Shown: in pieces, positions 1-18,201 of the stretch | How positions within the stretch are numbered: the stretch's first letter is position 1 | Layout: every line of letters starts with the position of its first letter | NCBI GenBank assembly: GCA_964367445.1 | Contig: CAYIXS010000001.1 | Coordinates: forward strand, 19,054 to 64,036 | Reading direction: 5' to 3' | Length of the DNA stretch: 44,983 bases | Source of the DNA: Candidatus Woesearchaeota archaeon | GTDB taxonomy: Archaea; Nanobdellota; Nanobdellia; SCGC-AAA011-G17; JACPIM01 | The notes under the pieces: generated by a model | What the model was told of the DNA's origin: nothing | Seen by the model: the letters and a program-made list of their open reading frames with translations, nothing else | The model's database searches: none | Translations under genes and position numbers: made by a program

Positions 1-55
1 TAACATTACAGCCTAATTCAACTGCATTTTATGTAACTGTATTAGCTACCACTAC
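1..55 (+). repeat. Intragenic repeat copy 1 (identical to 337-391, offset 336 nt = 112 codons)
   Basis: Hand alignment: taacattacagcctaattcaactgcattttatgtaactgtattagctaccactac occurs at both positions in the same reading frame (..LTLQPNSTAFYVTVLATTT). Confidence 0.9.
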
Positions 56-1139
56 TACAAGTTCATCAACAAGTACACTACCAAGAGCTAATCTAACATT
101 ATATTTAACAAATTCATCATTCACAGGATTATATCGGAACATAACAGCATTCACAAATGACTCTGTTAACATAACATCAAAAGAACCTTATCCTGCTGAT
201 GTAAATATGACTTTGTATGTAACTAATTATGCTGGGGTAAATGCTAGTTTTAATTATTCCAAGTCATTCTTGCAGAACATAACTAATTTCTGGACAGAAG
301 GAAATTATTTGATTAATATAACTTGGGAAGGCAATTTAACATTACAGCCTAATTCAACTGCATTTTATGTAACTGTATTAGCTACCACTACAACTACGTC
401 AACAAGTTCATCAACTTCAAGCACAACCGCAAGTTCTGGAGAACCAGAAGTAATACCTAGTGCTGGTGGAGGTTCATCTGGTGGTTCTGGTGGTGGAACA
501 AGAATAAGCGAGATAGTACAAAAACCTGAAGAAACCTCTTATTCAATACCTTTATTAGCTCCCGGGGAACTAAATATAAAAATAGGAGATCCATATTCTA
601 ATATTATCTCTGTGTTATTGAACTTAAACCGTGGTTCTTATAATTCTGAGATTAAAGTGAAAAATATTGATATTCCTCCTGAAGGAGTTAGTTTATTTGG
701 AGAAAATGCATTAGATTATTATGAAATTTTAACAACCAACATACCTATAAGTGCAATTAGCGAAACTATGATTACTTTTAAATATAAAAAGACAGAAAAA
801 TCCGTTGGTCTATTTTATTATCTGGACGGAAAATGGAATGAATTAGCTTCAAGGGAGATCAAAGATGATGAGTATTACAATTATTATGAAGCAATAAGCT
901 ATAATTTAGGTTATTTTGTTATTGCAAGAAAAGAGACTACTGAAAAAATAAATATAGAATCTGAATCGGCTGAATCTGGTTTTATAAAAAACATCAGATT
1001 GGTAAAAAACAGGATAAATCACTTAAATTTTAATAACTACAAGTCCGCAATAATAGTCGCAATAAATCTGGTTTTATTAATTCTTATTAGTGTATTATAC
1101 TTGTTTGCATGGGTGATTAAGAAATTTAGAAAAAAATAA
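3..1139 (+). CDS. Surface glycoprotein-like protein, 5'-partial (runs off the left edge)
   Basis: The frame of the 207..1139 ORF stays open back to nt 3. More than 12 N-x-S/T sequons, a Thr/Ser-rich linker (TTTTTSTSSSTSSTTASSG), a Gly-rich stretch, and one C-terminal TM helix followed by KKFRKK. No enzyme motif recognised. Confidence 0.6.
   Translation, partial: TLQPNSTAFYVTVLATTTTSSSTSTLPRANLTLYLTNSSFTGLYRNITAFTNDSVNITSKEPYPADVNMTLYVTNYAGVNASFNYSKSFLQNITNFWTEGNYLINITWEGNLTLQPNSTAFYVTVLATTTTTSTSSSTSSTTASSGEPEVIPSAGGGSSGGSGGGTRISEIVQKPEETSYSIPLLAPGELNIKIGDPYSNIISVLLNLNRGSYNSEIKVKNIDIPPEGVSLFGENALDYYEILTTNIPISAISETMITFKYKKTEKSVGLFYYLDGKWNELASREIKDDEYYNYYEAISYNLGYFVIARKETTEKINIESESAESGFIKNIRLVKNRINHLNFNNYKSAIIVAINLVLLILISVLYLFAWVIKKFRKK
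337..391 (+). repeat. Intragenic repeat copy 2 (domain-plus-linker repeat of the surface protein)
   Basis: 55/55 identity to nt 1-55. Similarity resumes after a 9-nt indel in the Ser/Thr linker. Confidence 0.9.
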
Positions 1140-1193
1140 TTATTTTTTTAAGTTTTGTATTTCTTCTTGTAGCTCTAAAATTCTCGAAATTGC
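1131..1193. repeat. Left copy of a 63-nt imperfect direct repeat flanking the ATPase gene
   Basis: Ungapped alignment to 2639-2701 (offset 1508 nt) gives 58/63 identities by hand count. The core ttttgtatttcttcttgtagctctaaaattct is identical. Confidence 0.9.
1140..1193 (-). pseudogene. Orphan duplicate of the last 17 codons plus stop of prefoldin alpha
   Basis: The reverse complement reads AISRILELQEEIQNLKK*, versus the genuine pfdA C-terminus AISRILELQEEIQNLKD* at 2648-2701. No upstream coding continuation. Confidence 0.75.
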
Positions 1194-2638
1194 TTTTTCC
1201 TATTTTTCTTGTTTTGATAGGTGGTTTTGATTATTATCTGTTAATAACCATCTCCATAAAGGAATAAATTTAATCTTTTTATCTTTAATTTTATCTTCTG
1301 CTTCATAATCCCCGGTTATAATAAACCCTTCCTTTATTTTAAACACTTCTAAAAACTTTATCATTCCTTTGATGTCTTTTAATTTTACTTTTAAAACATA
1401 TTTTACTTCAATAGGTATAATTTGGTTTTCTTTTATAATCACGAAGTCTACTTCTTTATTCCTTTCTCTCCAAAAATAAGGGGCATTAGTAATAAATTGT
1501 ACAAGATTTTCTATTATTTTACCTTCTTCAGCATTAGATAATGACAAGGCAAGGCATGGGTGAATTAAATAATACCTCTTTAATTTTCTTGAAGAAACTC
1601 TAAACGAACCTCTAAAATTTTTTAAACTCTTCAGAATAAAACAGCATTCTAAATAATAAAGATAATTACTGATTACCTGTCTACTTCTGCCAAAATCTTT
1701 TGATAGATCATCCAAATTGATGATTATTCCTGGATTAGATGCTATAACATTAATAAGCTTCTCGATAAGTTCTATGTCTTTGACATCAAATAAAGCGCTT
1801 AAATCTCTAAATATTGCTTTTTCAATTACGCTTTCTTTAATATATTTTTTTCCTATTTCGTCATTAACATTAATAATTTCTGGAAATGGTTTGATTAAAT
1901 ATTCCTTTAATTCTATTTTTATTTCTCTTTTCCATAAACTTATATTTTCTTTAATTTTTTTAATATTTTTATCTTTTAACTCTAAGAATTCTTCAAATGA
2001 GAGTATATTAAGATTAAAATGAAAGATTCTGCCAGCAAGGCTTTCTTTTGCATCAAGCAAAATATTAAGAGAGGCAGAACCAGAGATAAAAAATTTAATA
2101 TTTGGATAGAGATCATAATAAATCTTAATCTTATCTTGCCAATTTTTTAACTTTTGTATTTCATCTAAGAAAATATAAATTTTTTCTCCACTAAGGTCTT
2201 TTTTTAATATCTCTTCTTGGTAAATGTCCATCACTTCCCTTATCTCTTCTATGCTTTCATCAAAAGAGAAGTATAAGATGTTTTTCGGGCTAATATTCTC
2301 TTTGATAAATTGATCTATTAACTGATAAAGTAATGTTGTTTTTCCGACTCTTCTTAAGCCGACAATTGCTATTATCTGCCTTAGTTTGAGATATTTTTTA
2401 ATCTCAAAAAATAATTTTCTCTTGTAATCGGGAGAAAGTTCCTTTTTTATACCTCCCAATTTCCACCAGTGATTCATTTCAGACAGTTTTTCTATTGTAA
2501 CCATATTCGTTATCTACGATTAACTAATATTTAAACTTTTCGTTTCCAATTAGAAACCAATAGATGATAGAATTGTTGAGAGATGATATAAACTGTTATG
2601 AAAAGACAAATGATTGGAACAAGCCAGTGATCGGAGGT
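1194..2638 (-). mobile_element. Candidate inserted cassette (AAA_14/DUF4143 ATPase gene plus its 143-nt upstream region) between the direct repeats
   Basis: The segment sits between the 63-nt direct repeats and separates the convergent surface-protein and pfdA genes. No integrase or transposase is present, so mobility is inferred only from the duplication. Confidence 0.3.
1200..2504 (-). CDS. AAA+ ATPase of the AAA_14 / DUF4143 type
   Basis: Walker A GLRRVGKTTLL, Walker B IFLDEIQ, ~430 aa. The C-terminal part (EVDFVI...IPIEVKY) is typical of the DUF4143 restriction-endonuclease-like module. Confidence 0.8.
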   Translation of the reverse strand: MVTIEKLSEMNHWWKLGGIKKELSPDYKRKLFFEIKKYLKLRQIIAIVGLRRVGKTTLLYQLIDQFIKENISPKNILYFSFDESIEEIREVMDIYQEEILKKDLSGEKIYIFLDEIQKLKNWQDKIKIYYDLYPNIKFFISGSASLNILLDAKESLAGRIFHFNLNILSFEEFLELKDKNIKKIKENISLWKREIKIELKEYLIKPFPEIINVNDEIGKKYIKESVIEKAIFRDLSALFDVKDIELIEKLINVIASNPGIIINLDDLSKDFGRSRQVISNYLYYLECCFILKSLKNFRGSFRVSSRKLKRYYLIHPCLALSLSNAEEGKIIENLVQFITNAPYFWRERNKEVDFVIIKENQIIPIEVKYVLKVKLKDIKGMIKFLEVFKIKEGFIITGDYEAEDKIKDKKIKFIPLWRWLLTDNNQNHLSKQEK

Positions 2639-2701
2639 AAAAAATAATCAATCTTTTAAATTTTGTATTTCTTCTTGTAGCTCTAAAATTCTTGAAATTG
2701 C
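2639..2701. repeat. Right copy of the 63-nt direct repeat (contains the functional pfdA 3' end)
   Basis: See 1131-1193. Confidence 0.9.
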
Positions 2702-3055
2702 CCTTTTTAGCTGTTCTTCTAATTTCATTAATGATTCTGAAATTTCTTTTTGCTGATTTTCAATGATTAAATTTGCGTCTTTAATTTTTTTATTTATAAA
2801 AATATCAGAACCTATATTAAATAATACTTCTTTTGTATCTTTTAATACTGCTTTAGCAAATATTCCTTGGCCTATTTGTGAAAAAATATCTTTATCTTGT
2901 TTTGAATTCTCTAAATTCATAAGAGCCTCATTAAGTTTTGATAATTCTGAATTTTGCTGACTTAGCATGCTGCCTTGTTGTTGTAGGTTTTCTATATGTT
3001 GTTGAAGAAGCTGATATTCAATTAATTTTTGTTGAATCTCTTTTTTATCTTTCAT
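2648..3055 (-). CDS. pfdA: Prefoldin alpha subunit
   Basis: 135-aa coiled-coil protein. The central GQGIFAKAVLKDTKEVLFNIGSDIFINKKIKDA double beta-hairpin region is typical of the alpha (not beta) subunit. Confidence 0.8.
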   Translation of the reverse strand: MKDKKEIQQKLIEYQLLQQHIENLQQQGSMLSQQNSELSKLNEALMNLENSKQDKDIFSQIGQGIFAKAVLKDTKEVLFNIGSDIFINKKIKDANLIIENQQKEISESLMKLEEQLKRAISRILELQEEIQNLKD

Positions 3056-3672
3056 TTTTTCTTTTCTGCTTTTTCTTTAACTTTTTTTGATTTAGTAACT
3101 TCTCCAGTTTGCATTTTTCCTTCTCTTTTGTGCTTTGGTTTTTCCTTTTCTGGCTTTGATTTGGGTTTTTTTACTTCTATACCTAATTCTTTTAACTCTT
3201 TGATCACTACTTCTGTTGAAGCTTTTGGCTTAATTTTAATTTTTTTATCTAAAGTTTCAATATGTTTTATATTTGCCTTTTTTCTTCTCACTTGGCCATC
3301 TAACAAAACATAATTATTATCTATTATATCAACTATAACCCCTATTTTTCCAGCATCTCTGCCCTGTGTTTTGATTATTAATCTTCCTGTTTCTATTTTT
3401 TCATTTACTACATTAAACTTCTTGCTTATTGCTTCTGCTGTACAAGAATGGCATAAGAAACCGCCAAACATCCTCTCTGGTCTTCGCTGTACTTTTGGCA
3501 TTCTCCTCAAGTTAACTGCCCTCTCCCTTGGTACACCATGCAAGATATTTCCGCAATGGGCACAATGAGCTTGATTTGGTTTTCTTTTTCTATAGTGTAT
3601 AGCTAATTTACCACCAGGTAGCTTTACTTTAATTCTCTTAAAACTCCTTGTTCTGTGTGGTTGTAGTGGCAT
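3052..3672 (-). CDS. Ribosomal protein L34e fused in frame to ribosomal protein L14e, with a Lys-rich tail
   Basis: N-terminal ~95 aa: L34e (MPLQPHRTRSFKR..CAHCGN..CHSC Zn ribbon). Residues ~97-170: L14e KOW domain (GRLIIKTQGRDAGKIGVIVDIIDNNYVLLDG). No stop codon between them. Confidence 0.85.
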   Translation of the reverse strand: MPLQPHRTRSFKRIKVKLPGGKLAIHYRKRKPNQAHCAHCGNILHGVPRERAVNLRRMPKVQRRPERMFGGFLCHSCTAEAISKKFNVVNEKIETGRLIIKTQGRDAGKIGVIVDIIDNNYVLLDGQVRRKKANIKHIETLDKKIKIKPKASTEVVIKELKELGIEVKKPKSKPEKEKPKHKREGKMQTGEVTKSKKVKEKAEKKK

Positions 3673-3687
3673 TTTATTTTTTGTTTA

Positions 3688-4137
3688 TTAGTAAACTTTT
3701 AAAACCTTTCTAATTATGATACTGAAGATTACTGAAAATAGAATATAGCTCCAAAGCCAGCTTAAACCAAATATGATTTTAATATCTTCTCCATTGGTTG
3801 TAAAGGTTTCTCTTAACCATCCCAATATCAAAATAAGCGGTAAAAAGGTTATTAACATCGGTTTAAATATGTGTTTATAAGATTCCATCATTAGTGGGCT
3901 TAACTGTTTTTGTTTTTCAAGCATCTTTTCTGGACTGCTTTTTAAACCCTTAATTTCATTTTGTATATTTTTCATTTCCTCTCTAATAGATTTTAATCTT
4001 TCTTGATTCGTGGTAAATTTATAAATCAATGTTGTAAAAAGAGTTATTATAAAAGTTATTATCATCAAATTATATGGTGCACCTAGATTGATCGCCCAAC
4101 CAAAGATTAAATCAAAAAAACCACTTAAAAATGCCAT
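3688..4137 (-). CDS. DUF106 membrane protein (archaeal YidC/Oxa1/EMC3-like insertase)
   Basis: Three TM segments with a charged coiled-coil insert (ERLKSIREEMKNIQNEIKGLK). Conserved position directly downstream of secY in archaea. Confidence 0.75.
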   Translation of the reverse strand: MAFLSGFFDLIFGWAINLGAPYNLMIITFIITLFTTLIYKFTTNQERLKSIREEMKNIQNEIKGLKSSPEKMLEKQKQLSPLMMESYKHIFKPMLITFLPLILILGWLRETFTTNGEDIKIIFGLSWLWSYILFSVIFSIIIRKVLKVY

Positions 4138-4138
4138 T

Positions 4139-5575
4139 TTATTTCTCCATAACTTTTCTTAATGAAGGATACATATCCATCATATGTTGTTGCGCTATAT
4201 CTTCATACAGCCTATAAATTATCATTACTGTTAGCAAAAGCCCAGTACCAGAAGTTAATGCTCCTAATAAGTCAGCTGATGCTGCCAAAAAACCTATTGA
4301 GATACCACCCATTATTGTTAATGGGGTTATATATCTTTTTAAAATTTGTTCTAAAACTCGTTGATCTCTTCTAAAACCTGGAATTTGTAATCCTGAAGCC
4401 ATCATTTGTTTGGCTTGAGATCCTGCATCCATTCCAGATGTTTGAACCCAGAAGTATGAAAATATTACTGAACCTATTACCATTATTAATAAATAAGAGA
4501 GAGCATGCCCTAAGTCGATTAATCTAAAAGATCCCGTTATAAGGTTTTGTATTATTGTCGGGCTTGAAGTCCAAGCCACTAACCCCCCTTGTGGCGTGTT
4601 GCCTACATACTGACCCAACACATTAGACGATATAAAAGTAATAACCTTATTTCCTGTATTTGTAGCTGCTGACTGTAATAATCTTGCTAGTAGCTGTGTA
4701 TTTGCTAAGAAGGCAGCGATCAATATAACTGGTATATTTGAGGTATATAAAAATTTTAACGGCCATCTAATACCATGGCCACGTATCCTACCAAAAGATA
4801 AAGGAATTTCTACTTTCATGGCTTGAGCATAAACAGAGAATGCAAAAACAATAACTGTTGCAAGAATTGCTGATAGAGCGATTAATGCCTGTGTTGGATG
4901 TCCGCTAGCTAAAGAGGTAAATAAAACCCATATTTGGCCTACTGCTGCTTCTCCTTTGCCTAGGGCCCAAGTACCTAATGAACTTAAGGGTGAAAGGGCT
5001 CTTACAAATAAACTAGAAGCTACTCCTGCAGCTATAAATAATGATACTCCTGAACCAAAACCCCATTTATTGATTACATCGTCCATGTACATTATTAGTA
5101 ATCCTCCAACAAATAATTGAAAGATTAGCATAAATTGAGCAAATCTAAATGTTGCTGGTGATAAATTTGGTGATGGTGATAAACCCCCCATCAACACATA
5201 TATCATTGCTTCGAATATTATGAAGAATAAAATCAATATTTTTTGTATGCCTTGGAAGAATGATCTTCCTTCTGGGCTGGTTGTATCTATCTTTAATAAT
5301 CCTGAACCAACCAAAAGCTGGATTACAATTGACGCTGTTACAATTGGGCCTATACCCAAAGAGGCGATGGTTCCAAATTTTGCACCTAAAATAACTGAAA
5401 GCTGCTCTAGAAACGATAGAGAATTGCTGCTTAAACCATATAGCGGTATTACACTAAGGATATAAAAAGCGACTAATATTAACAAAGACCATTTTAATTT
5501 TGTTTTAAACGGCAATCTTTTTTCAGTTGGTTTTCTAACTTCTGGCAGAAAATCTAGTATAGAAGTAAGTTTCAT
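4139..5575 (-). CDS. secY: Preprotein translocase subunit SecY
   Basis: 478 aa, 10 TM pattern, operon position after rpl15. Motifs such as GIGPIVTASIV and SNIPVILIAA. Confidence 0.95.
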   Translation of the reverse strand: MKLTSILDFLPEVRKPTEKRLPFKTKLKWSLLILVAFYILSVIPLYGLSSNSLSFLEQLSVILGAKFGTIASLGIGPIVTASIVIQLLVGSGLLKIDTTSPEGRSFFQGIQKILILFFIIFEAMIYVLMGGLSPSPNLSPATFRFAQFMLIFQLFVGGLLIMYMDDVINKWGFGSGVSLFIAAGVASSLFVRALSPLSSLGTWALGKGEAAVGQIWVLFTSLASGHPTQALIALSAILATVIVFAFSVYAQAMKVEIPLSFGRIRGHGIRWPLKFLYTSNIPVILIAAFLANTQLLARLLQSAATNTGNKVITFISSNVLGQYVGNTPQGGLVAWTSSPTIIQNLITGSFRLIDLGHALSYLLIMVIGSVIFSYFWVQTSGMDAGSQAKQMMASGLQIPGFRRDQRVLEQILKRYITPLTIMGGISIGFLAASADLLGALTSGTGLLLTVMIIYRLYEDIAQQHMMDMYPSLRKVMEK

Positions 5576-7702: not shown

Positions 7703-8150
7703 TTTTGTTTGTAAGATTATTATCCTCCAAGTACAGCTTAATTAAACGGATACTTCTGAAACGATTACTTTTTGTTTTGTGATATATATCCCGATAAACC
7801 GGTTTTGTGATTACACCTTTGTTTTTTAAATGCTTTATAAACTTTCTTTGTGCTCTGATACCTGCCATCCAAAATTTTTTTTGCGGTAATCTTGAGGTTT
7901 TTTTGCCCTTTTTTGAGCCTATCCCTTTTCTTCTTCCTTTTGCTTTTTGTATTCTTATCTTTCTTGAACGTGCTTTAGAATGCCCTTTTTTCTTATTTAT
8001 AGAAATTGCTCCTGCGGATATTAATGATTTAAGATCCGCCTTTGTAATTGCTTCTTTAATTTCGGCTAGTTTACTTGGATCTAGTTTAACCCGATTAATT
8101 CCCACATTAAAAAGCCTTGCAACTATCCTTCTTTGGTTTCTTACATTCAT
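7680..8150 (-). CDS. rpl19e: 50S ribosomal protein L19e
   Basis: NQRRIVARLFNVGINRVKLDP..EIKEAITKADL start, typical of eL19. Confidence 0.95.
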   Translation of the reverse strand: MNVRNQRRIVARLFNVGINRVKLDPSKLAEIKEAITKADLKSLISAGAISINKKKGHSKARSRKIRIQKAKGRRKGIGSKKGKKTSRLPQKKFWMAGIRAQRKFIKHLKNKGVITKPVYRDIYHKTKSNRFRSIRLIKLYLEDNNLTNKNATKKKK

Positions 8151-8704
8151 CTTTGTTGCTCCAAAATTTTTCTTTTTTCTTCTTTTTCTCTCTTTTCTTT
8201 TTCTTCTTGGGTCTCTTCCTTTTGTTGCTTTTCTTGTGCCTGCTTTATTGATTGCTCTTTTGATTTTTTCTTTTTTTCTTCTTCCTTTTGCTTTTTTTCG
8301 TCTTTAATCTTTCTTTCTTCTTCTGTTGTTTTTATATAATTATCAATATGATGTATATTAATAACTTTTAATCCCATTTCTTTGATTTTTTTTAATAGCT
8401 CTAATCTTTTTTTAATACCTAGTGACCTAGATAAAATTATTCCGTGTTTTTTTGTTAAATTTTCTAATTGAGTTATTTTTGAAACAGACACTTGTATTAA
8501 ACCTTCTCTTGATAGTCCTCTAAATTTTCTCGATGTGGCATAACCTATTGATGGCAGAAGACCTTTGCCTTTTCTTTTTCTTCTTAGCTTGGAGTGCATT
8601 CCTTTTGGTGCTCTCCATCCGGTGTTGGCTATCTTTTTAAATATGCGAGCTTGTTGCCTAATGAATCTTGGCTTCTTCTTTCTTGGTTTAGTTAACTGTT
8701 CCAT
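8147..8704 (-). CDS. rpl32e: 50S ribosomal protein L32e with a ~55-aa Lys/Glu-rich C-terminal extension
   Basis: FIRQQARIFKKI..GWRAPKGMHSKLRRK core. The tail EEERKIKDEKKQKEEEKKKKSKEQ..EKEKREKEEKRK is low complexity. Confidence 0.9.
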   Translation of the reverse strand: MEQLTKPRKKKPRFIRQQARIFKKIANTGWRAPKGMHSKLRRKRKGKGLLPSIGYATSRKFRGLSREGLIQVSVSKITQLENLTKKHGIILSRSLGIKKRLELLKKIKEMGLKVINIHHIDNYIKTTEEERKIKDEKKQKEEEKKKKSKEQSIKQAQEKQQKEETQEEKEKREKEEKRKILEQQR

Positions 8705-8713
8705 TTTATTAAC

Positions 8714-9238
8714 CTAAATTTTGAATATTCCATCTTGAAAAACTCTCCTGTCTCTTTTAGTAATTTTTGTTGCTATTTCTATGTTTGCTGCTGACTGCGC
8801 GGTTGCTTCTTTATCCGCACCTGTTAGAGTAATAATATCTGAATCCAATTTAACTAAAACTCCCTGCAAGATTGTTGCTTTTCTTGGAATTTTTTCTCCT
8901 AGAAAATTTGAAATTATGACATTATCCTTATCTTGAGTTACTTTCATTGGAAAATGCCCAGAGCAGACCTTTAGTTTATAGATATATGGATTTTGAACTC
9001 CCAAAATCATATTTTTTATATGGGAATAAAAAGAGTTGACAATTTTTTTAAATTTTCTTGAATTCTTCTTTGATTTTATTACTATCTTGTTTTCACTCAG
9101 ATTCAAACTAACATTTTTAAAGGCAAATCTTCGCTCTATCTCCCCTTTAAGTCCTTTAACTTTTATTAGATCTCCATCTAAACTAATTGATACTGTGCTT
9201 GGTATTATTGCTGTTCTATCAATCGACTTTTTTTCCAT
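8714..9238 (-). CDS. rpl6: 50S ribosomal protein L6 (uL6)
   Basis: Two-domain L6 pattern (IKVKGLKGE..., VCSGHFPMKV); operon order. Confidence 0.95.
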   Translation of the reverse strand: MEKKSIDRTAIIPSTVSISLDGDLIKVKGLKGEIERRFAFKNVSLNLSENKIVIKSKKNSRKFKKIVNSFYSHIKNMILGVQNPYIYKLKVCSGHFPMKVTQDKDNVIISNFLGEKIPRKATILQGVLVKLDSDIITLTGADKEATAQSAANIEIATKITKRDRRVFQDGIFKI

Positions 9239-9239
9239 T

Positions 9240-9632
9240 TTAGTAACAATATGCTATTAGTCTCCCGCCAATTTTTTTCTCTTTTATTTCATGGTGTGTT
9301 AAAATCCCTTTGGATGTTGAAAGTATTAATACCCCGAAACCTTTTGCTGGTAAGAACCTTTTTTCAAATTTCTCTATGTCTTGCAACTTAACTTGATATC
9401 TTGGTTTTATTACACAGCAATCATTAATTTTGTTTGCTAATGTTATTTCTAAAACTGTCCCTTTTGTGGTATTGCTTTCCTTATAACCCAGTATATATCC
9501 TAACTTTTTCAAAATATCTAAAACTGTCTTTATAATCTTTGAACTAGGGTAAACTGTGCAGGATAGTTTGCCTACTTTTTGGGCATTATTTATTTTTGAT
9601 AATGCGTTTGATAATGGGTCGTTTAGAGTCAT
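9240..9632 (-). CDS. rps8: 30S ribosomal protein S8 (uS8)
   Basis: MTLNDPLSNALSKINNA start and GGRLIAYCY end. Confidence 0.95.
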   Translation of the reverse strand: MTLNDPLSNALSKINNAQKVGKLSCTVYPSSKIIKTVLDILKKLGYILGYKESNTTKGTVLEITLANKINDCCVIKPRYQVKLQDIEKFEKRFLPAKGFGVLILSTSKGILTHHEIKEKKIGGRLIAYCY

Positions 9633-9641
9633 TTTTTCTCC

Positions 9642-9872
9642 CTAATTATATTTTTTGAATCCTAAAGATGGAGCACATTCCCTGAAACAGGTTCTACATA
9701 AATTTAAACCGTATTTTTGTATGTGCGCATGCGTTCTGCCGCACCGGACACATTTTTTTAATGATGCCCCTGTTGTTCTTTTTTTAGGAGCGTTGTGTTT
9801 AATGAATTTTCTCCATTTGGTCTGTTTTACTTTTAATTGAGTATATGCTTTCTTATAGCTGCTTGTTGTCAT
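9642..9872 (-). CDS. rps14: 30S ribosomal protein S14 type Z (uS14), with an N-terminal extension
   Basis: Zn ribbon CVRCGR..CRTCFRE; operon order. Confidence 0.9.
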
Positions 9873-10381
9873 TCTTCACCTATACTTACTGAATATTTAT
9901 TTTTCATAAATCCTTTTGCTTCCTCTTTTGTTATTTTGTGTTTCTTTGATATTTTTCTCTTCATTATTTTTCTTTCTTTTATCCTAAACCCCGGCCTAGT
10001 GAGAGAAACTGCGGTTTCAAATCCTATTATTCCAATTGATGGATCATATTCCGCGCCTGGAACATCCAGATATTCTGCTATACCAAAAGAAAAATTACCT
10101 TGATCATCAAAATAGGACTCTTTTAGTTTATTTCCCTTTGCTTCAATTAATCTTTTGAGTAAAGCTTCTGCTTTTTTTCCTCTGAGCGTCACTTTACAGC
10201 CAATCTGTAAACCGGGCCTTATATCCCAGCCAGGAATTCTTTTTTTTGTTGTGGTTGTAACTGGTTTTTCTTTGGTTATGTTTTTTAAAAGTTTTAGTGC
10301 TTTGTCTAGTTTATCTCCTGGTCCACCAGTTCCTATATTCATTGTCAGTTTTTCCAACTTTATTTCTTTCATTGGGTTCAT
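9869..10381 (-). CDS. rpl5: 50S ribosomal protein L5 (uL5)
   Basis: [12 protein letters not shown]..., [13 protein letters not shown] motifs. Confidence 0.95.
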
Positions 10382-11058: not shown

Positions 11059-11449
11059 CTTTATTAGACCTCGTTAATGCTTTTACTCTCTCATTATCTT
11101 CTAGATTTAGATCTGTTATTATCAAGTTTGATGGGTGTAGTGGATAAAAAACCTTTGAACCATCTTTTTTAACTAATTGAACTGAATCTATGTACACTTT
11201 GGCTTTTTTTAGATTAACATCAACTACCTTGCCTTTTGTTTTCTTAAACTGCCCCTTTGATACAAGCACTTTATCATCTTTCCTAACTGGAAAGGCCCTT
11301 TTTTTATATTTTGCTCTTAACTCTTTTGATAAGTGTGCTGATAAAAATTTTCTTCTTATGTGCAAAGGAGCGTTAGCTAAATATTTTCTCTGCTTATTTG
11401 GCTTTTTACTGGATTTCCAACTTTTTGAAAATTCTTTCATTTTATACAA
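11027..11449 (-). CDS. rpl24: 50S ribosomal protein L24 (uL24)
   Basis: KQRKYLANAPLHIRRKFLSAHLSKELR plus KOW (VRKDDKVLVSKGQFKKTKGKV). 32-nt overlap with rps4e. Confidence 0.95.
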   Translation of the reverse strand: MYKMKEFSKSWKSSKKPNKQRKYLANAPLHIRRKFLSAHLSKELRAKYKKRAFPVRKDDKVLVSKGQFKKTKGKVVDVNLKKAKVYIDSVQLVKKDGSKVFYPLHPSNLIITDLNLEDNERVKALTRSNKDVTSEKNKNS

Positions 11450-11843
11450 CTATTCCTGCTAATTTAGCTATTCCTGGCCATCTTTCTGTGGCTTCTTTTG
11501 CTATTGGACCTTTAAAAATGGTTCCCTTTGGGTTGCCTTTATCATCTTTTAGAATTGCAACCGAGTTATCTGAGAATCTTATTCTTGTACCGTCTGGTCT
11601 TCTATATTCTCTTCTCTGTCTCACTATTACAGCGGGAACTACTTGTTTTCTCATTTCTTTATCTCCCTTTATGACTGAAACAAAAACTAAATCTCCAATA
11701 CCCGCTGTTGGTTTTCTTCTTTTTACTGTTTTTGAACCTTTTACGGATACTAGCCTAACTAGTTTAGCTCCTGAATTATCGCAGGTGTCCAAAACCGAGC
11801 CATGACATAGCCCTTTAGTTATTCTTGCTCTTAATGCTTTCAT
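11442..11843 (-). CDS. rpl14: 50S ribosomal protein L14 (uL14)
   Basis: GSVLDTCDNSGAKLVRLV motif. Confidence 0.95.
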   Translation of the reverse strand: MKALRARITKGLCHGSVLDTCDNSGAKLVRLVSVKGSKTVKRRKPTAGIGDLVFVSVIKGDKEMRKQVVPAVIVRQRREYRRPDGTRIRFSDNSVAILKDDKGNPKGTIFKGPIAKEATERWPGIAKLAGIVV

Positions 11844-12171: not shown

Positions 12172-12410
12172 TTTTTGATCCTCTCTTCCGGTCTGCCAAC
12201 TAATTCTTTTCCATCGATTTCTATTTTTCTCCCTTTGAGATTTATTTCCATTTTTGCTTGGTTTTTTATTATTTTTTTAATTCCGTTTTTCGTATCTATT
12301 ATAATCATATTCCTTGTTTCGTCTATTACTTTGCCTTCTATATTTTCAAGGTTGTGATTTGTTGAACTTATTACTTTAATTTCGGATCCTATTAGCTCGT
12401 GTCTTATCAT
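12168..12410 (-). CDS. rnp1: RNase P protein component 1 (Rpp29/Pop4 homologue)
   Basis: 80-aa Sm-like protein (ELIGSEIKVISS..IEGKVIDETRNMIIIDT) in the conserved archaeal slot between rpl29/SUI1 and rps17. Confidence 0.85.
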   Translation of the reverse strand: MIRHELIGSEIKVISSTNHNLENIEGKVIDETRNMIIIDTKNGIKKIIKNQAKMEINLKGRKIEIDGKELVGRPEERIKK

Positions 12411-12719
12411 TTATCTTAATTCTATTGCGCTTGGATCGAAACCTAATTTTATAAGTTCTGTTTTAACCTTGGCCGCGTGGGTTCCTTGTAATTCAATAAC
12501 ATTACCTTTTACTGTGCCGCCACAAGCAAACTTTGATTTCAAGTTTTTTGCCACTTCTTTAATATCCACTTCCTTGCTGTTGATCCCTTCTATCACTGTT
12601 ATCATCTTACCGAATTTTCTTTTTTCTTCCTTAACCTTTATTCTTTGTTCACTCTTGGCTAAATTCTCCCATACGCCTAATTCCTTAGGTAAGCCTGTAA
12701 GTGGGTCTATTTCGCCCAT
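12411..12719 (-). CDS. Translation initiation factor SUI1 (aSUI1/eIF1)
   Basis: RKFGKMITVIEGI....LKSKFACGGTVKGNVIELQG motif. Confidence 0.9.
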   Translation of the reverse strand: MGEIDPLTGLPKELGVWENLAKSEQRIKVKEEKRKFGKMITVIEGINSKEVDIKEVAKNLKSKFACGGTVKGNVIELQGTHAAKVKTELIKLGFDPSAIELR

Positions 12720-12955: not shown

Positions 12956-13676
12956 TTTCCTTTTTTACCTCGGATCTTTTCTTTCTTTCTTTTTGTTTTT
13001 CCTTTGGCTTTTCTTCATTTTTTATCTCTGCCTTTACTTCTTCCAATTTTTCTTCTTTAATTTCTACTTTCTTTTGTTCTTGAACTTTAGGTTCTATATG
13101 ATCTGGTAATCTTGTATCTGGCAGCATTAAGCTAACTTTAACGCCTACAACTCCGGACTTAAGATTTGCCGCGCTCTCTGCTCTTTTTACTTTTGTAAGT
13201 GCTGTATCTCCGGATTTTTTTAAATACCCAGCCGAGAATCTCCATGATCTTGCTCTTGCGCTAGGAACTTTACCGGATATAACTATTTCAGCACCCATTG
13301 CTCCGGCATCCATCATCATTTGCAAGGTTTTATAACCAACAGATTTAAACCCTTTTGAACCAAACCTTTCTAAAGTAGATACAATTTTATCACAAACAAA
13401 ACTAACATCTAAATAAGGACTTTCAACTTCACCTATTTCTATCTGTGGATTCTCCATTCTAAATTTCTTCTTTAAAACCGAGGTTAGTTTTTGAATTGTC
13501 TCTCCTTTTTTACCTACTACCAAACCCGGGCGTGTAGTATAAACTATTACTTTTTCTCCTAGTGGTGTTCTTTTAACTTCGGTATGTGAATAACCGGTTT
13601 TAGCCAGTTTTGAGGCGATATACTCTTGTATTAAAAACTCCTTTAACTTCTGTTTTACAAATTGTCTTTCAATCAT
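12933..13676 (-). CDS. rps3: 30S ribosomal protein S3 (uS3) with a Lys/Glu-rich C-terminal tail
   Basis: KH domain (VIVYTTRPGLVVGKKGETIQKL). Tail QEQKKVEIKEEKLEEVKAEIKNEEKPKEKQKERKK. Confidence 0.95.
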   Translation of the reverse strand: MIERQFVKQKLKEFLIQEYIASKLAKTGYSHTEVKRTPLGEKVIVYTTRPGLVVGKKGETIQKLTSVLKKKFRMENPQIEIGEVESPYLDVSFVCDKIVSTLERFGSKGFKSVGYKTLQMMMDAGAMGAEIVISGKVPSARARSWRFSAGYLKKSGDTALTKVKRAESAANLKSGVVGVKVSLMLPDTRLPDHIEPKVQEQKKVEIKEEKLEEVKAEIKNEEKPKEKQKERKKRSEVKKENVINKEE

Positions 13677-14486: not shown

Positions 14487-15211
14487 TAATTCTTCCTTCC
14501 TGATCTCTTAGGTCTTATCGAGCCAACATTTCTTCCTGGCGGAGCAAATCTTGGAGCTGGTTTGATCTTTGAGTGGTGTCTTCCTCTACCTGAACCATAT
14601 GGGTGATCAACTGCATTCATAGCTACACCAGATGTAATAGGGTAAAGTTTACCGCGCGCCCTCATCAAGAAATGTCTTTTACCTGCTTTAACAAATGGTT
14701 TATCTTTTCTTCCTGCTCCGCAAATTGTTCCTATTGTGGCCCTGCATTCTGACAATATCTTTTTTTGTTTTTTTGATGGCAATTCAACCAGAATTGATTC
14801 GCCTAAATTTGATATTATCCTTGCAGAATTTCCAGAGGTTCTACAAAGTTTTCCGCCATCTCCTGGCATTAGTTCTATGTTATAAATCAAAGTCCCCCCT
14901 GGTATATTTTTTAATGGCAGAGTATTGCCTGTTTTTACCTGTGCTTTTGAACCTGATTCTATGAATTCATTTACTTTTATGTTTTCAGGAGCGAATATAT
15001 ATCCTTGTTCGTTGTTTTCATATTTTATTAATGCTAGGGGAGCTGAATGCCCTGAACAATGGATTAAATCTAAAATTCTTCCCTTAATTAAAGAGGTTTT
15101 TTCTAATTCATCATAATTTCTGTGTTTAACAGCAGCAATCCACCTATGTGAATGAGCTCGGTAAGTAGTTGTTCCCCTTCCTCTACGTTGTTGGATTATT
15201 TGTTTTCCCAT
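14486..15211 (-). CDS. rpl2: 50S ribosomal protein L2 (uL2)
   Basis: [17 protein letters not shown]...[16 protein letters not shown]. Confidence 0.97.
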
Positions 15212-15212
15212 T

Positions 15213-15464
15213 TTACATTATACCTAACTTAGTTGCAATATCTATCGCGGGAGTATCTTGTGGTAATTTTATATATGCCTTTTTTAAACCTTTTTGAATT
15301 GAAGTATTGACATTTATTATTTTAACTTTAAACATCTCTTCAAAAGCAGTTTTTATTTCATTTTTTGAGGCTTTTTTGTCTACTATGAATATGATTTTAT
15401 TTTCAGATTCCATTAATTTAACTGATTTTTCAGTTGACAATGGATATTTTAATATTTGATTCAT
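15213..15464 (-). CDS. rpl23: 50S ribosomal protein L23 (uL23)
   Basis: LKYPLSTEKSVKLME..IIFIVDKKASKNEIK. Confidence 0.95.
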   Translation of the reverse strand: MNQILKYPLSTEKSVKLMESENKIIFIVDKKASKNEIKTAFEEMFKVKIINVNTSIQKGLKKAYIKLPQDTPAIDIATKLGIM

Positions 15465-16276
15465 TTTTTATTATTTAGGAATAATTTGTTTTTTTCTAGT
15501 GCTTTTATTGAATCTTCTGTATAAATTGTTAATCTGCCCGGAATTGAACCGGGAGCCAATAAATTTACATTTAATTCATTTATTTTTGAAACATCTAATC
15601 CTGGTAAGTTTGAAGCTGATTTCATTAATGGGCATTCTTTTGATACAACAAACAGTATACCTGATTTTGTTTTGTACTTTCTTCCTCTGGATTTTCCTCT
15701 TCCAGATCTGATTTGTTTTTCTTCTGTCCTTGCTAGTTCTTTGTCTAATCCCAATGAAATAAGTATTTTCTTTATGTCTTTCGTTTTATTTTTTGATTCT
15801 ATCTTTGAATCTATTACAATTGATGGTATATCAGTTTTATGGCCTCGTAATTTTATTAAATCTAAATTAAATGTTGCTGCCAGAGCTGATCTAATAGCTT
15901 TTCTTCTTTCTTTAATATTTATTTTTCTAGACCAAATCTTTTCTGATTTTGGGGGGTGGGCTCTTCTACCACCAACTGAAAAGGGGGTTGTTGCTGCCAC
16001 ATAATAAAACTGTGTACCTCTTCTTGTCATAACTTTTCTTGGAACTCTTGAAGCTCCCCTTCCATAGATACCTTTGTATTTCCTTCTTCTTTTAGAAACA
16101 TATGAAGAATATCTTTTACCTGCAAGTTCATAAGCGCCATATGGTGTTCTAGAAGATAATTGTAATGTAATAAATGCTCTTTTGATTAAATCTTGCCTTA
16201 TTGGCTCATCAAACTGAATAGGCAGGGCTATTTGTTTTATTTTTTTTCCTTCTAGATTATATAATTCTGCTTTCAT
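15461..16276 (-). CDS. rpl4: 50S ribosomal protein L4 (uL4)
   Basis: PIRQDLIKRA...GRGASRVPR...; operon order. Confidence 0.95.
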   Translation of the reverse strand: MKAELYNLEGKKIKQIALPIQFDEPIRQDLIKRAFITLQLSSRTPYGAYELAGKRYSSYVSKRRRKYKGIYGRGASRVPRKVMTRRGTQFYYVAATTPFSVGGRRAHPPKSEKIWSRKINIKERRKAIRSALAATFNLDLIKLRGHKTDIPSIVIDSKIESKNKTKDIKKILISLGLDKELARTEEKQIRSGRGKSRGRKYKTKSGILFVVSKECPLMKSASNLPGLDVSKINELNVNLLAPGSIPGRLTIYTEDSIKALEKNKLFLNNKK

Positions 16277-16277
16277 T

Positions 16278-16302
16278 ATAAGGATTCCATCCTTATCAAC
16301 CT
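16278..16302 (-). promoter_or_regulatory. Hairpin element in the rpl3-rpl4 spacer, ending 2 nt before the rpl4 AUG
   Basis: The mRNA sense reads AGGUUGA-UAAGGAU-GGA-AUCCUUA-UA-AUG (7-bp stem, 3-nt loop). This is the only spacer longer than 10 nt between rpl3 and secY. 24/25 identical to 23780-23804. Confidence 0.6.
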
Positions 16303-16316
16303 AAAAAATTGTTTTT

Positions 16317-17276
16317 TCATTGTTTACTGTCCAAGTTTATTGATTTTATTTCTAATTGATGTTGAGTTCTTGCTCTTATTGCCGGGGTAAGTATTATTGT
16401 CCTCTTTGCCGGGCCTGGAATTGAACCCTTAAGAACAATATAATGATTCTTTACTAAACCATAATGTAAAAAACCAGATTTTGGGTTTATCTTTTTTGGA
16501 TCTGAGTCTATCATTAAATTTTGCTTATTATACTCAGTTCTTTGATGGTAACCCATCTGCCCTGCGTGGGCAACTGAAAACAAGACCTTTTTAGGAGTCC
16601 AAGAACCTAGAGAAGCCGGGCCTCTTTTTGTTTTTTCTGCTTTGTGCTGCCTTATTGTAACACCAAATCTCTTAACGGGACCTTGGTAACCTTTGCCTTT
16701 TGTCACGGAGTGAATATCCAGCAACCTAATATCTTTTAAAACTTCTTCTAATCTTATTTCTTTATCTAATAGGGATTTAGCAAATTCTAGTTTTTGTTTA
16801 GTATCCTCTCCTGAAATTGCCACCTCTAATACTTCTGGCCTTTTCTTTCCCAGGCCTGAAAGTTTTGGTTGAGTATAAACTACTAGTTTTAGATCATCAT
16901 ATTCTTTTGGCTCTTCTTTTGTTTTTTTTGGAAGATCCATTTTTCTTTTTAGATCTTTATCAAGTTTTTGGGAGAAAACTTCAGAAATAAGCTTTAAACC
17001 ATCATGAGAATTTTTGTAGAAACGTAAAGAAAGAGGTTTTAATGGTGGACATTCAATAATTGTCACGGGAACTGATATCAGCTGGTTTTTATACATGGTA
17101 TTTGGTGAAAGGTCTCTAGCCATCACGTGAGTCATGCCTGCTTTGTAGCCTATAAAGGCTAATAGCCTAGTTCCATCTAATTTTGGCCAACTTCTTATTC
17201 TTGCATAACTTCTTTTTGCTCTTTTTCTTGGCCAAATCTGTAAACTTCCTCTTCTTGGTCTGTGTATATTTGGCAT
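16317..17276 (-). CDS. rpl3: 50S ribosomal protein L3 (uL3)
   Basis: HRPRRGSLQIWPRKRA start; first gene of the operon. Confidence 0.97.
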   Translation of the reverse strand: MPNIHRPRRGSLQIWPRKRAKRSYARIRSWPKLDGTRLLAFIGYKAGMTHVMARDLSPNTMYKNQLISVPVTIIECPPLKPLSLRFYKNSHDGLKLISEVFSQKLDKDLKRKMDLPKKTKEEPKEYDDLKLVVYTQPKLSGLGKKRPEVLEVAISGEDTKQKLEFAKSLLDKEIRLEEVLKDIRLLDIHSVTKGKGYQGPVKRFGVTIRQHKAEKTKRGPASLGSWTPKKVLFSVAHAGQMGYHQRTEYNKQNLMIDSDPKKINPKSGFLHYGLVKNHYIVLKGSIPGPAKRTIILTPAIRARTQHQLEIKSINLDSKQ

Positions 17277-17399
17277 TTTTTAGACTATGAACTAGAATCA
17301 GCGGCTGAATTTTAGGCTTTCATTTTTAAATAACCTTTTTTTATTAATCAGTAGGGTAAAGGTTTTGTTAGAATTAGCATTTATAAAGCTATCGAAAAA

Positions 17400-17465
17400 T
17401 TAATTTTTAAATTTTAGAGAAAAAAATAAAAGTTAGTTCTAAATTTTTTTAGGCGCCTACGGCGC
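17400..17465 (-). repeat. Conserved 3' module, copy A (AT-rich flank plus GGCGCC-TAC-GGCGC palindrome spanning the stop codon)
   Basis: Aligns with 40671-40735 at roughly 85-90% identity with 3 single-nt indels (hand alignment): ttaatttttaaa..agaaaaaa.taaaa.gttagt.ctaaat.ttttt.ggcgcct.cggcgc. Confidence 0.8.
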
Positions 17466-18201
17466 ACGGAAACACCCCGAGCCCCGCATACGAGTCCCGC
17501 GGATCCCAGCTGTAGCTAAGGCTGGCCCTATCAGAATCGGCAACGAACCTAGCGACAGAATCAAGCCTAGGATAGACAAAATAAACTGTTTTTCCTGGTT
17601 CATATTCTTGAACTTTTGCTTTCTTTGTTAGAAATCCTTGACTATTTGTTGATTCTAGCTCTGCAAAACAATCTTCTTCTAAACAATCTTCTAAATGCTC
17701 TCTTTTTAGTATTGGTCTTCCTTTTTTATCTAAACCTGTAATTGTTACTAAATCTAGTCCAAGAAATCCTTTTCCTTTTGGAAATCTAGCATTAAGAACA
17801 ACCCAACAATTATGATTTATAACATTAGCATAATCATTTAATCTTTTTCCTTCTATTAAATTTCCAGCAGCATCATATAAAACACTTTTTCCTTGTAAAG
17901 TATCATTAACATTTTTATAATGCGGCATAAAAATTGAAGGTGTGGGAACAAATAAACCAGATTGTAAAACTTTAACATTTGTAGGAATAAACTGAAAACT
18001 ATTAAATCCCCACATCATGGAAATAGCATAGTCTTCTTGATCTCCTTCTTGAACTAAAGCATAATTTTCCGGTTTTATTTTAGCTTTTGTTTGAAAATGA
18101 TCAATATGTTTAGGAAAAGAATAGATTCCATCTGGTTTTTCTACATAAACCCTATTTGGATTTGTTTCAACTTCTTTTCTTCCTATGATTTGAACTACCA
18201 T
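17449..18201 (-). CDS. Hypothetical protein with a GC-rich, adenine-poor C-terminal segment (cassette A)
   Basis: 250-aa ORF with no signal peptide or TM. TATA box ~23 nt upstream of the ATG. C-terminus ...RASLSYSWDPRDSYAGLGVFPCAVGA. No family recognised. Confidence 0.7.
   Translation of the reverse strand: MVVQIIGRKEVETNPNRVYVEKPDGIYSFPKHIDHFQTKAKIKPENYALVQEGDQEDYAISMMWGFNSFQFIPTNVKVLQSGLFVPTPSIFMPHYKNVNDTLQGKSVLYDAAGNLIEGKRLNDYANVINHNCWVVLNARFPKGKGFLGLDLVTITGLDKKGRPILKREHLEDCLEEDCFAELESTNSQGFLTKKAKVQEYEPGKTVYFVYPRLDSVARFVADSDRASLSYSWDPRDSYAGLGVFPCAVGA
17452..17573 (-). other. DGR-variable-region-like segment (compositional anomaly)
   Basis: Hand count gives ~62% G+C. On the coding strand A is ~12% and T ~26%. 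Run of NNC/NNG codons (AGC TAC AGC TGG GAT CCG CGG GAC TCG ... TGC GCC GTA GGC GCC), while the rest of the gene is AT-rich. Confidence 0.45.

Follow-up and report, generated by a model that had tools for sequence, protein, structure and literature searches.

A candidate defence gene inserted between two copies of the pfdA/surface-protein junction in a woesearchaeotal genome

Gene units of bacterial restriction-modification (RM) systems can insert with long target duplication (Nobusato et al. 2000, as cited in Furuta, Abe & Kobayashi 2010, Nucleic Acids Research, PMC2853133). Furuta et al. recognised such events where a related genome has an empty site, the repeats exceed 30 bp and align with the target, the insert is small (<20 kb) and mobility genes are absent (PMC2853133). 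The mechanism is unexplained, and no archaeal case passed their screen (PMC2853133). The locus described here lies in a 44,983-nucleotide (nt) stretch of archaeal DNA, the window, in which a single gene for an AAA_14/DUF4143 ATPase-nuclease is enclosed by two 68-nt copies of the junction between pfdA, the gene of prefoldin alpha, and a surface-protein gene. The protein matches PDC-S01, a family reported to rank fourth in frequency among the candidate defence systems of prokaryotes, to be enriched in Archaea and to await validation (PMC12988326). DUF4143/COG1373 is classed in the PD-(D/E)XK superfamily (PMC3424549).

The window belongs to a contig assembled from groundwater of Hainich, well H51. 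The source genome, G000, is metagenome-assembled, 698 kb long, 31% GC and 71% complete, and its relatives are labelled Candidatus Woesearchaeota (DPANN archaea). Three species of the same genus, G001, G002 and G003, were used for comparison, G003 being the closest (pfdA 84% identical). Coordinates are positions in the window unless a genome or contig prefix is given, and L numbers denote loci. The locus comprises the following features:

3 to 1139, plus strand: surface-protein gene, 3' part, with Thr/Ser-rich repeats and a C-terminal membrane anchor (from the list of open reading frames, ORFs)
1131 to 1198, minus strand: orphan repeat copy, the displaced 3' end of pfdA (...EKAISRILELQEEIQNLKK and stop), from the repeat comparison and the empty-site alignment with G002
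1199 to 2638, minus strand: inserted single-gene cassette, 1.44 kb; repeat-to-repeat unit 1508 nt
1200 to 2504, minus strand: AAA_14/DUF4143 ATPase-nuclease, 434 amino acids (Pfam and PADLOC)
2528 to 2541, minus strand: archaeal promoter of the cassette, TATA box TTTAAATA (2535 to 2528) with an upstream GAAAAG resembling a B recognition element (BRE), read from the sequence
2542 to 2557, minus strand: palindrome GTTTC-N6-GAAAC, directly upstream of the promoter
2639 to 2706, minus strand: functional repeat copy, the 3' end of pfdA in use (...RAISRILELQEEIQNLKD and stop, 2648 to 2650) plus 9 nt
2648 to 3055, minus strand: pfdA (prefoldin alpha), the insertion target gene (Pfam Prefoldin, 4.2e-18)

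The cassette is missing from two of the three congeners. The stop codons of the surface-protein gene and of pfdA touch in G002 (coordinates 773/774), with nothing between them, and in G001 the two genes are separated by a gene-free spacer of 127 nt. Orthologues of the surface-protein gene adjoin pfdA in G001, G002 and G003, and pfdA is the final gene of an L30-L15-secY-EMC3-L34e/L14e cluster whose gene order is kept in relatives. G003 carries other cargo at the orthologous spot (L049, G003:C15, 893-2383), namely a truncated fragment of Lrp/helix-turn-helix (HTH) type and an MNT/HEPN toxin-antitoxin pair. Around this pair stands a repeat specific to the locus, about 37-64 nt long (GTTAAACTCTGCAAAAAT..GCAGTTA.GTGCTCCC) and present in 2 copies in G003. 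Since a sister species holds different defence-type cargo there, the pfdA/surface-protein junction is a small hotspot. Both copies of the window repeat align with the pfdA end and junction of G002 and G003. With these comparisons, there is very little doubt that the ATPase gene of the window was inserted at this junction. An earlier note on this DNA had read the gene as an inserted cassette, and its proposed check for empty sites in related genomes came out in favour of that reading. Neither of the outcomes that it had named beforehand as refuting, a lack of empty sites and family copies without flanking duplications, was found: duplicated target also flanks a 44%-identical paralogue on contig C10 of G000 and 8-10 of the 18 loci in related genomes.

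In G003 a sequence beside the pfdA stop codon (GAAATTTAG) may be what remains of the surface-protein gene end. In G031, which belongs to a different family, an AAA_14/DUF4143 gene of 33% identity also lies directly downstream of pfdA (L052, G031:C5, 3434-5389). No bracketing repeat was detectable around it, and it was treated as a coincidence or an old event with decayed repeats.

The direct repeat runs without gaps over 1131-1198 and 2639-2706, with 61 of 68 positions identical and an offset of 1508 nt. The earlier note had given it as 1131-1193 and 2639-2701 (58/63 identical, gap-free, same offset); those values hold, and the repeat is longer by five positions. Comparison of the left and right flanks of the ATPase locus by BLAST gives 85.7 bits (E = 3.7e-20), and all 80 controls lie at or below 30.2 bits. 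The 698-kb genome contains two copies, besides one weak AT-rich match of 40 nt. Of the 68 nt of the repeat, 59 belong to the end of pfdA and 9 to that of the surface-protein gene (AAA AAA TAA; AAAAAATAA). The right copy is the true end of pfdA, as had been claimed, but what had passed for a short downstream spacer (2639-2647, the 9 nt beyond the pfdA stop) is a copy of the last codons and the stop of the surface-protein gene. The left copy was rightly called an orphan with no gene body upstream, and it begins 1 nt past the stop codon of the ATPase gene. It sits in the ancestral position: its stop (1140-1142) abuts that of the convergent surface-protein gene (1137-1139), whose last 9 nt fall within the repeat, and the orphan retains the layout of abutting stops seen in G002.

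The surface-protein gene uses the left copy and pfdA the right copy. Because the duplication covers both gene ends, each neighbour retains a complete 3' end, and both genes are intact. The earlier note had offered two origins for the repeats. Its element with att-type ends, carrying a replacement gene end, stands as far as the insertion is concerned, but a duplicated target junction fits better, since the repeat holds the last 9 nt of the surface-protein gene. Its other suggestion, an imprecise tandem duplication, is rejected, as the enclosed 1.44 kb is not native to this locus. Its statement that integrase, transposase and terminal inverted repeats are missing is upheld for the cassette and its ends by the ORF list, Pfam and a repeat search. 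Pairwise comparison of the two repeat copies and the G003 orthologue shows about 7 differences in 68 positions each time, and neither copy looks imported.

Two independent replicate assemblies, L073 and L074, both from well H51, contain both repeat junctions in identical form and match the window with zero mismatches from position 977 on; the junctions are therefore not an assembly artefact. Nor are the two copies a collapsed repeat, since they differ at 7 positions. A Logan contig (L075) of 1536 nt, equal to window 1155-2690 and with a 28-nt terminal overlap, was considered as an excised circle. Its circular look is explained by a break of the k=31 de Bruijn graph at the 32-nt identical core of the repeat, and it was rejected as evidence. 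The replicate assemblies disagree in one patch of the surface-protein gene, at 803-976, with 25 differences in 175 nt, and agree everywhere else in the 5.5 kb compared; the patch is hypervariable or recombined at strain level. The same gene has a tandem period of 336 nt (1-69 and 337-405, 69 nt at 93% identity) and shares modules with paralogous genes on C10 and other contigs.

The only gene of the cassette encodes a two-domain protein. Its Pfam matches are AAA_14 (1.8e-34, 119 bits against a cut-off of 27) and DUF4143 (1.4e-21, 77.4 bits against a cut-off of 28.1), and it matches the PADLOC model PDC-S01 (PDLC04787) over its full length (2.5e-61, residues 27-423). The Walker A motif (GLRRVGKT), the Walker B motif (DE) and the PD-(D/E)xK nuclease motif (KEVDFV...PIEVK) are present, and in 25 sequences residues G49, R51, R52, G54, K55, D114, E115, E351 and D353 are invariant. 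The gene is therewith a candidate for a role in phage defence. Among solved structures no informative match was found, only a designed pentatricopeptide repeat (PPR) protein (E = 2e-8, about 60 residues) and 2fna (E = 3.5e-4).

The closest homologues, 64-70% identical, come from other lineages, contigs labelled Pacearchaeota, Anstonellales and Methanosarcinales included, and the best matches within the genus, in G001 and G003, reach 41-44% identity. The gene is foreign to the genus, and these identities point to horizontal acquisition. Base composition is uninformative (cassette GC 26.9% versus 30% for the genome, the 10th percentile). The C-terminus is about 12 residues longer than in relatives, which end a few residues past the conserved ...PLWKWLL; the original stop codon was therefore probably lost.

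That the ATPase gene is the sole gene between the repeats and has a promoter region of its own, as the earlier note stated, agrees with the Pfam matches and with the perfect archaeal TATA box that can be read upstream of it. The TATA box lies about 27 nt from the ATG and is preceded by the purine-rich, BRE-like GAAAAG; the transcript would be leaderless. A scan for bacterial promoters and terminators was set aside as irrelevant to an archaeal host. Related cassettes at other sites keep the block AACGAAAAGTTTAAATATTGGTTA..TA.ATAAC.AAT directly before the ATG, and the similarity among these cassettes is confined to the region from about -50 through the stop codon, with no conserved termini and no inverted repeats. 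The palindrome GTTTC-N6-GAAAC may serve as an operator to which the winged-helix domain of the ATPase-nuclease itself binds, and a GTTATC/GATAAC palindrome is also present in this promoter. In the window (2505-2560) and at L034, L039, L040, L047 and L065-L068 the promoter is conserved and its TATA box is flanked, on one side or on both, by palindromes such as GTTAC/GTAAC, TGTACA and GTTTC/GAAAC. Such palindromes suggest autoregulation by the winged-helix domain. The stretch of 84 nt that separates the right repeat from the conserved promoter has an open frame of 35 codons with the look of a membrane anchor. It gave only chance-level AT-rich matches in G000, in the compared loci and in 240 genomes of the order, and the idea that it is a former target end carried over with the cassette is unsupported, no homologue having been found.

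Bracketing of this kind recurs around the ATPase family. Twenty-two AAA_14/DUF4143 loci of the archaeal order, 4 in G000 and 18 in related genomes, were surveyed by BLAST comparison of their left and right 1.5-kb flanks, and the 80 controls were mismatched pairs (left flank of one locus, right flank of another). At 10-12 of the 22 loci the bracketing repeat exceeds the maximum of all controls. The duplicated segments are ends of tRNA genes, ends of protein genes, surface-protein genes among them, and other blocks:

L039 (G029): 39 nt, 100% identical; tRNA 3' end duplicated
L035 (G034): 60 nt, 100% identical; tRNA duplicated
L034 (G003): 52 nt; 3' end of a gyrA-like gene
L044 (G013): 47 nt; 3' end of a map-like gene
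L040 (G019): 36 nt; 3' end of a kae1-like gene
L037 (G031): 35 nt; 3' end of a gene for 471 amino acids
L047 (G004): 177 nt; block including a gene end
L033 (G037): 135 nt; intergenic block

Across the other sites the duplication measures 19 to 380 nt. Units that contain only the ATPase gene are 1385-1508 nt long, the ORF being preceded by 76-134 nt and followed by 1-63 nt, and the gene may point either way relative to its target. Of the four closest homologues, two also have bracketing repeats: that of L065 is 168 nt from the end of a giant surface-protein gene, and that of L068 is 40 nt at 100% identity. Among size-matched ORFs of G000, 5 of 95 are bracketed at a cut-off of at least 38 bits, and 4 of the 5 are defence or toxin-antitoxin cassettes. 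The fifth (C17:3447-5120) is flanked by a 27-nt AT-rich, promoter-like intergenic motif, the pair lying 4.3 kb apart, and is not a cassette. At L067 (2808-7032 of a contig of JGI 3300021357) three AAA_14/DUF4143 genes stand side by side. A 38-nt copy of the conserved 3' end of the ATPase gene (KIKFIPLWKWLL) is orphaned there upstream of gene 1 and occurs at the ends of genes 1 and 2, at 95-97% identity. Insertion of one cassette into the end of another, or recombination through such ends, seems to have taken place there.

The same footprint is carried in G000 by cassettes with other cargo, of HEPN/MNT, BrnT-like, ParE, AbiE and PIN/UPF0175 type, as a self-comparison of the whole genome revealed. 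Those bracketed singly, at L058 (C19), L061 (C21) and L062 (C34), are:

C19 (L058), 2514-4358: AbiEii toxin and partner; repeat of at least 69 nt, the membrane tail of a surface protein
C19 (L058), 7952-8918: PIN(DUF3368)/UPF0175 pair; repeat of 33 nt spanning the overlap of two genes
C21 (L061), 9770-10379: ParE-type pair; repeat of 46 nt, the end of a PCMT gene
C34 (L062), 660-2313: ATPase_2/DUF234 ATPase; repeat of 41 nt, the 5' end of a gene

A whole array is found at C10:9900-15270 (L055). The 3' end of a surface-protein gene (14903-17713, minus strand), a paralogue of the surface-protein gene in the window, is present there 5 times (about 14890-15267, 13131-13558, 12285-12631, 11391-11535 and 9916-10262), and four cassettes lie between the copies: the 44%-identical AAA_14/DUF4143 ATPase, an untyped pair (68 and 88 amino acids, no Pfam match), a BrnT-like pair (weak Pfam match) and an MNT/HEPN pair. 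All copies end at the stop codon but reach upstream to different extents, about 145 to about 380 nt. A 25-nt indel with a stop codon is common to three orphan copies and missing from the functional one. The adjacent copies R4 and R5 are the least alike (85.6%) and the non-adjacent R1 and R3 the most alike (96.6%). Shared variants are distributed among the copies as a mosaic, which shows that the repeats have undergone homologous recombination or gene conversion. An empty site for the array was not found in G003, whose contig breaks 340 nt from the conserved neighbour, or in G001, where the gene order differs.

Two further loci of G000 were noted. A 242-nt direct repeat at C14:5863-6104 and 9133-9374 (L056; 99%) duplicates the 3' end of a gene for 158 amino acids and brackets 3.0 kb with five genes of nucleotide repair and metabolism (methylpurine-DNA glycosylase, thymidylate kinase, a cytidine-type deaminase, DUF7768 and Ham1); it resembles the other events but appears recent and carries cargo that is not of defence type. 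C15:850-6311 (L063) is a small defence island, in which two ORFs judged by eye to resemble archaeal-type ATPases (410 and 465 amino acids) flank two MNT/HEPN-like pairs, and a 34-nt intergenic direct repeat (2246-2279 and 4848-4881) lies around the pairs.

The explanation preferred here, held with some confidence though far from certainty, is that a defence-type gene was inserted at the tail-to-tail junction of pfdA and the surface-protein gene with a 68-nt duplication of the target, within the recombinase-free class called insertion with long target duplication. A self-contained PDC-S01 ATPase-nuclease gene with its own promoter would have arrived horizontally and been joined at the junction. 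Both gene ends, 59 nt of pfdA and 9 nt of the surface-protein gene, would have been duplicated in the process, and the spare pfdA end left behind as the orphan. A staggered double-strand break may have produced this outcome, its long overhangs being filled in after the foreign DNA was joined. Equivalently, replication may have switched template to the foreign DNA and then back to a point 68 nt upstream. In very compact genomes the only insertions to survive would be those whose duplication spans a gene boundary, which is why the repeats would be gene ends that stop at stop codons, here the two abutting ends. The direct repeats could afterwards allow homologous recombination to loop out, shuffle and stack further cassettes. 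That the repeats of the window arose by duplication in one step, taken by itself, is moderately probable.

The strongest competitor to target duplication is a recombination of Campbell type, which is possible but distinctly less probable. A circle that already carried a copy of the pfdA/surface-gene junction, looped out from the same locus in a related cell, would have recombined with the chromosomal junction, by host homologous recombination or by an integrase acting in trans in the manner of a cis-mobilisable element (CIME), and the repeats would be hybrid att-like sites. The topology of the product is identical, and the hotspot holds different cargo in the sister species G003. Several observations weigh against a one-step duplication. 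The mosaic repeats of the C10 array, which speak for recombination among such repeats, fit the arrival of ready-made circles at least as well; the exact tRNA 3' ends of 39 and 60 nt that flank some family members (L039 and L035) are also the classic signature of an integrase; and, the repeat copies of the window being 10% diverged, the event is old and any microhomology at the junctions is unreadable in the AT-rich sequence. Moreover, since G000 is 71% complete, a recombinase acting in trans may have been missed. The conserved 38-nt ATPase 3' end that separates the tandem genes of L067 likewise suits a recombination through existing copies. Against this, Campbell-type integration is unable to create new target sites, and local duplications occur at no fewer than 12 different targets. 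The cassette lacks an integrase, and the one Phage_integrase-family gene found among the tyrosine recombinases of G000, on contig C76, with no second found, is taken to be XerA-like. Both repeat copies are about equally far from the G003 orthologue, and the 84 nt upstream of the conserved promoter have no homologue among the 240 genomes of the order. One-step duplication and Campbell-type arrival are probably successive stages of one life cycle.

A different proposal is that the cassette makes the chromosomal breaks for its own insertion by means of its PD-(D/E)xK nuclease, driven by the ATPase. Kobayashi's group proposed such a role for restriction enzymes, and the double-strand-break hypothesis is stated in PMC2853133. 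Bracketing is strongly enriched in the family (10-12 of 22 loci versus a base rate of about 1% for non-defence genes), and the nuclease and ATPase residues are invariant. The HEPN/MNT, ParE, BrnT-like, PIN and AbiE cassettes of G000, which contain no such DNA endonuclease, share the footprint and thereby weaken the proposal, and there are no conserved cassette ends for a dedicated enzyme to recognise; it is considered doubtful. A local tandem duplication or an assembly chimera, with no foreign DNA inserted, is extremely improbable. Slippage can yield direct repeats, and the genome is metagenome-assembled, but the 1.44 kb copies nothing nearby and is missing from congeners, the replicate assemblies agree at the junctions, and the repeat copies are not identical. 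Integrons, insertion sequence (IS) elements, casposons and an SSV-type integrase were also considered and rejected, their defining features being missing: there is no recombinase, shared att core, attC site, terminal inverted repeat or fixed duplication length, and site-specific systems therefore fail to account for the locus.

Insertion with long target duplication might be extended, quite tentatively, to a general route in DPANN archaea, by which small selfish or defence genes are taken up at gene boundaries without a recombinase and with a long, variable target duplication, the repeats then serving as handles for homologous recombination. By such a route cassettes would be looped out, exchanged and stacked into integron-like arrays without an integron integrase, and the C10 array would be a platform of this sort. 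In a sharper version, the ATPase-nuclease itself may make the staggered breaks.

Few candidate immune genes of prokaryotes are as abundant as those of PDC-S01 ATPase-nucleases, which are especially common in Archaea, and neither their function nor the way they spread has been established. The locus is a natural experiment, with empty sites in two congeners, another cassette in the third and a duplication that preserved two abutting genes, and the same genome adds an array of four different cassettes behind one gene, with mosaic repeats. It suggests that genomes of about 1 Mb, with hardly any intergenic space and no visible mobile-element machinery, may still exchange defence genes by such insertions.

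Among known systems, integron cassettes are likewise units of one or two genes, often of toxin-antitoxin or defence type, that are stacked in arrays. The units described here differ from them in having no attC-type imperfect palindromes and no IntI (no attC-like inverted repeat was found at the cassette ends), in repeats that copy the host target and in promoters of their own. Unlike DDE/IS transposons, they show no transposase, no terminal inverted repeats and no short duplication of fixed length (68 nt here, 19-380 nt elsewhere). CIMEs and satellite islands are att-flanked elements without an integrase that accrete in tandem at the 3' ends of target genes and tRNAs and need a cognate integrase and a fixed att core. 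They resemble the present cassettes in that the repeats are the 3' end of a target gene that stays intact, cassettes are separated by repeat copies (as on C10) and there is no internal recombinase. The targets of window-type cassettes are many and unrelated, in contrast to those of CIMEs, their repeats vary from 19 to 380 nt, and no such integrase was seen: the cassette encodes no cognate site-specific recombinase, and the 71%-complete genome has the single Phage_integrase-family gene on C76. With PDC-S01 (COG1373; AAA_14 and DUF4143) the window protein shares the two-domain architecture, the full-length hidden Markov model match and the conserved catalytic residues. In the consulted portions of the PDC-S01/DUF4143 literature it is treated as a gene of defence islands, with no account of its mobility found there, whereas here it is a mobile unit of 1.4-1.5 kb with its own promoter.

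The closest likeness is to the RM units that insert with long target duplication. Both are small, selfish units of defence type that include a nuclease and have no adjoining integrase or transposase, and in both the repeats are longer than 30 bp, variable in length, often overlap the 3' end of a gene and align with a single-copy empty site. Measured by the features that Furuta et al. used, the locus has empty sites with similarity on both sides in G002 and G001, a 68-nt repeat (61/68) that aligns with a single-copy target, and an insert of 1.44 kb with no mobility gene and a repeat that is not dispersed (two copies in the genome). The cargo departs from their set of restriction and modification genes: it consists of AAA_14 and DUF4143 and includes no methyltransferase, and the locus is therefore filed as a variant of the long-target-duplication class, outside the RM set. 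Unlike the RM units, the insert is a single PDC-S01 gene in a DPANN archaeon, its duplication spans two abutting gene ends, toxin-antitoxin modules share its footprint, and arrays are stacked. Mobility with long target duplication is thereby extended from bacterial RM systems to archaeal single-gene defence candidates and toxin-antitoxin modules, and the locus is a variant of a known, mechanistically unexplained kind of gene mobility.

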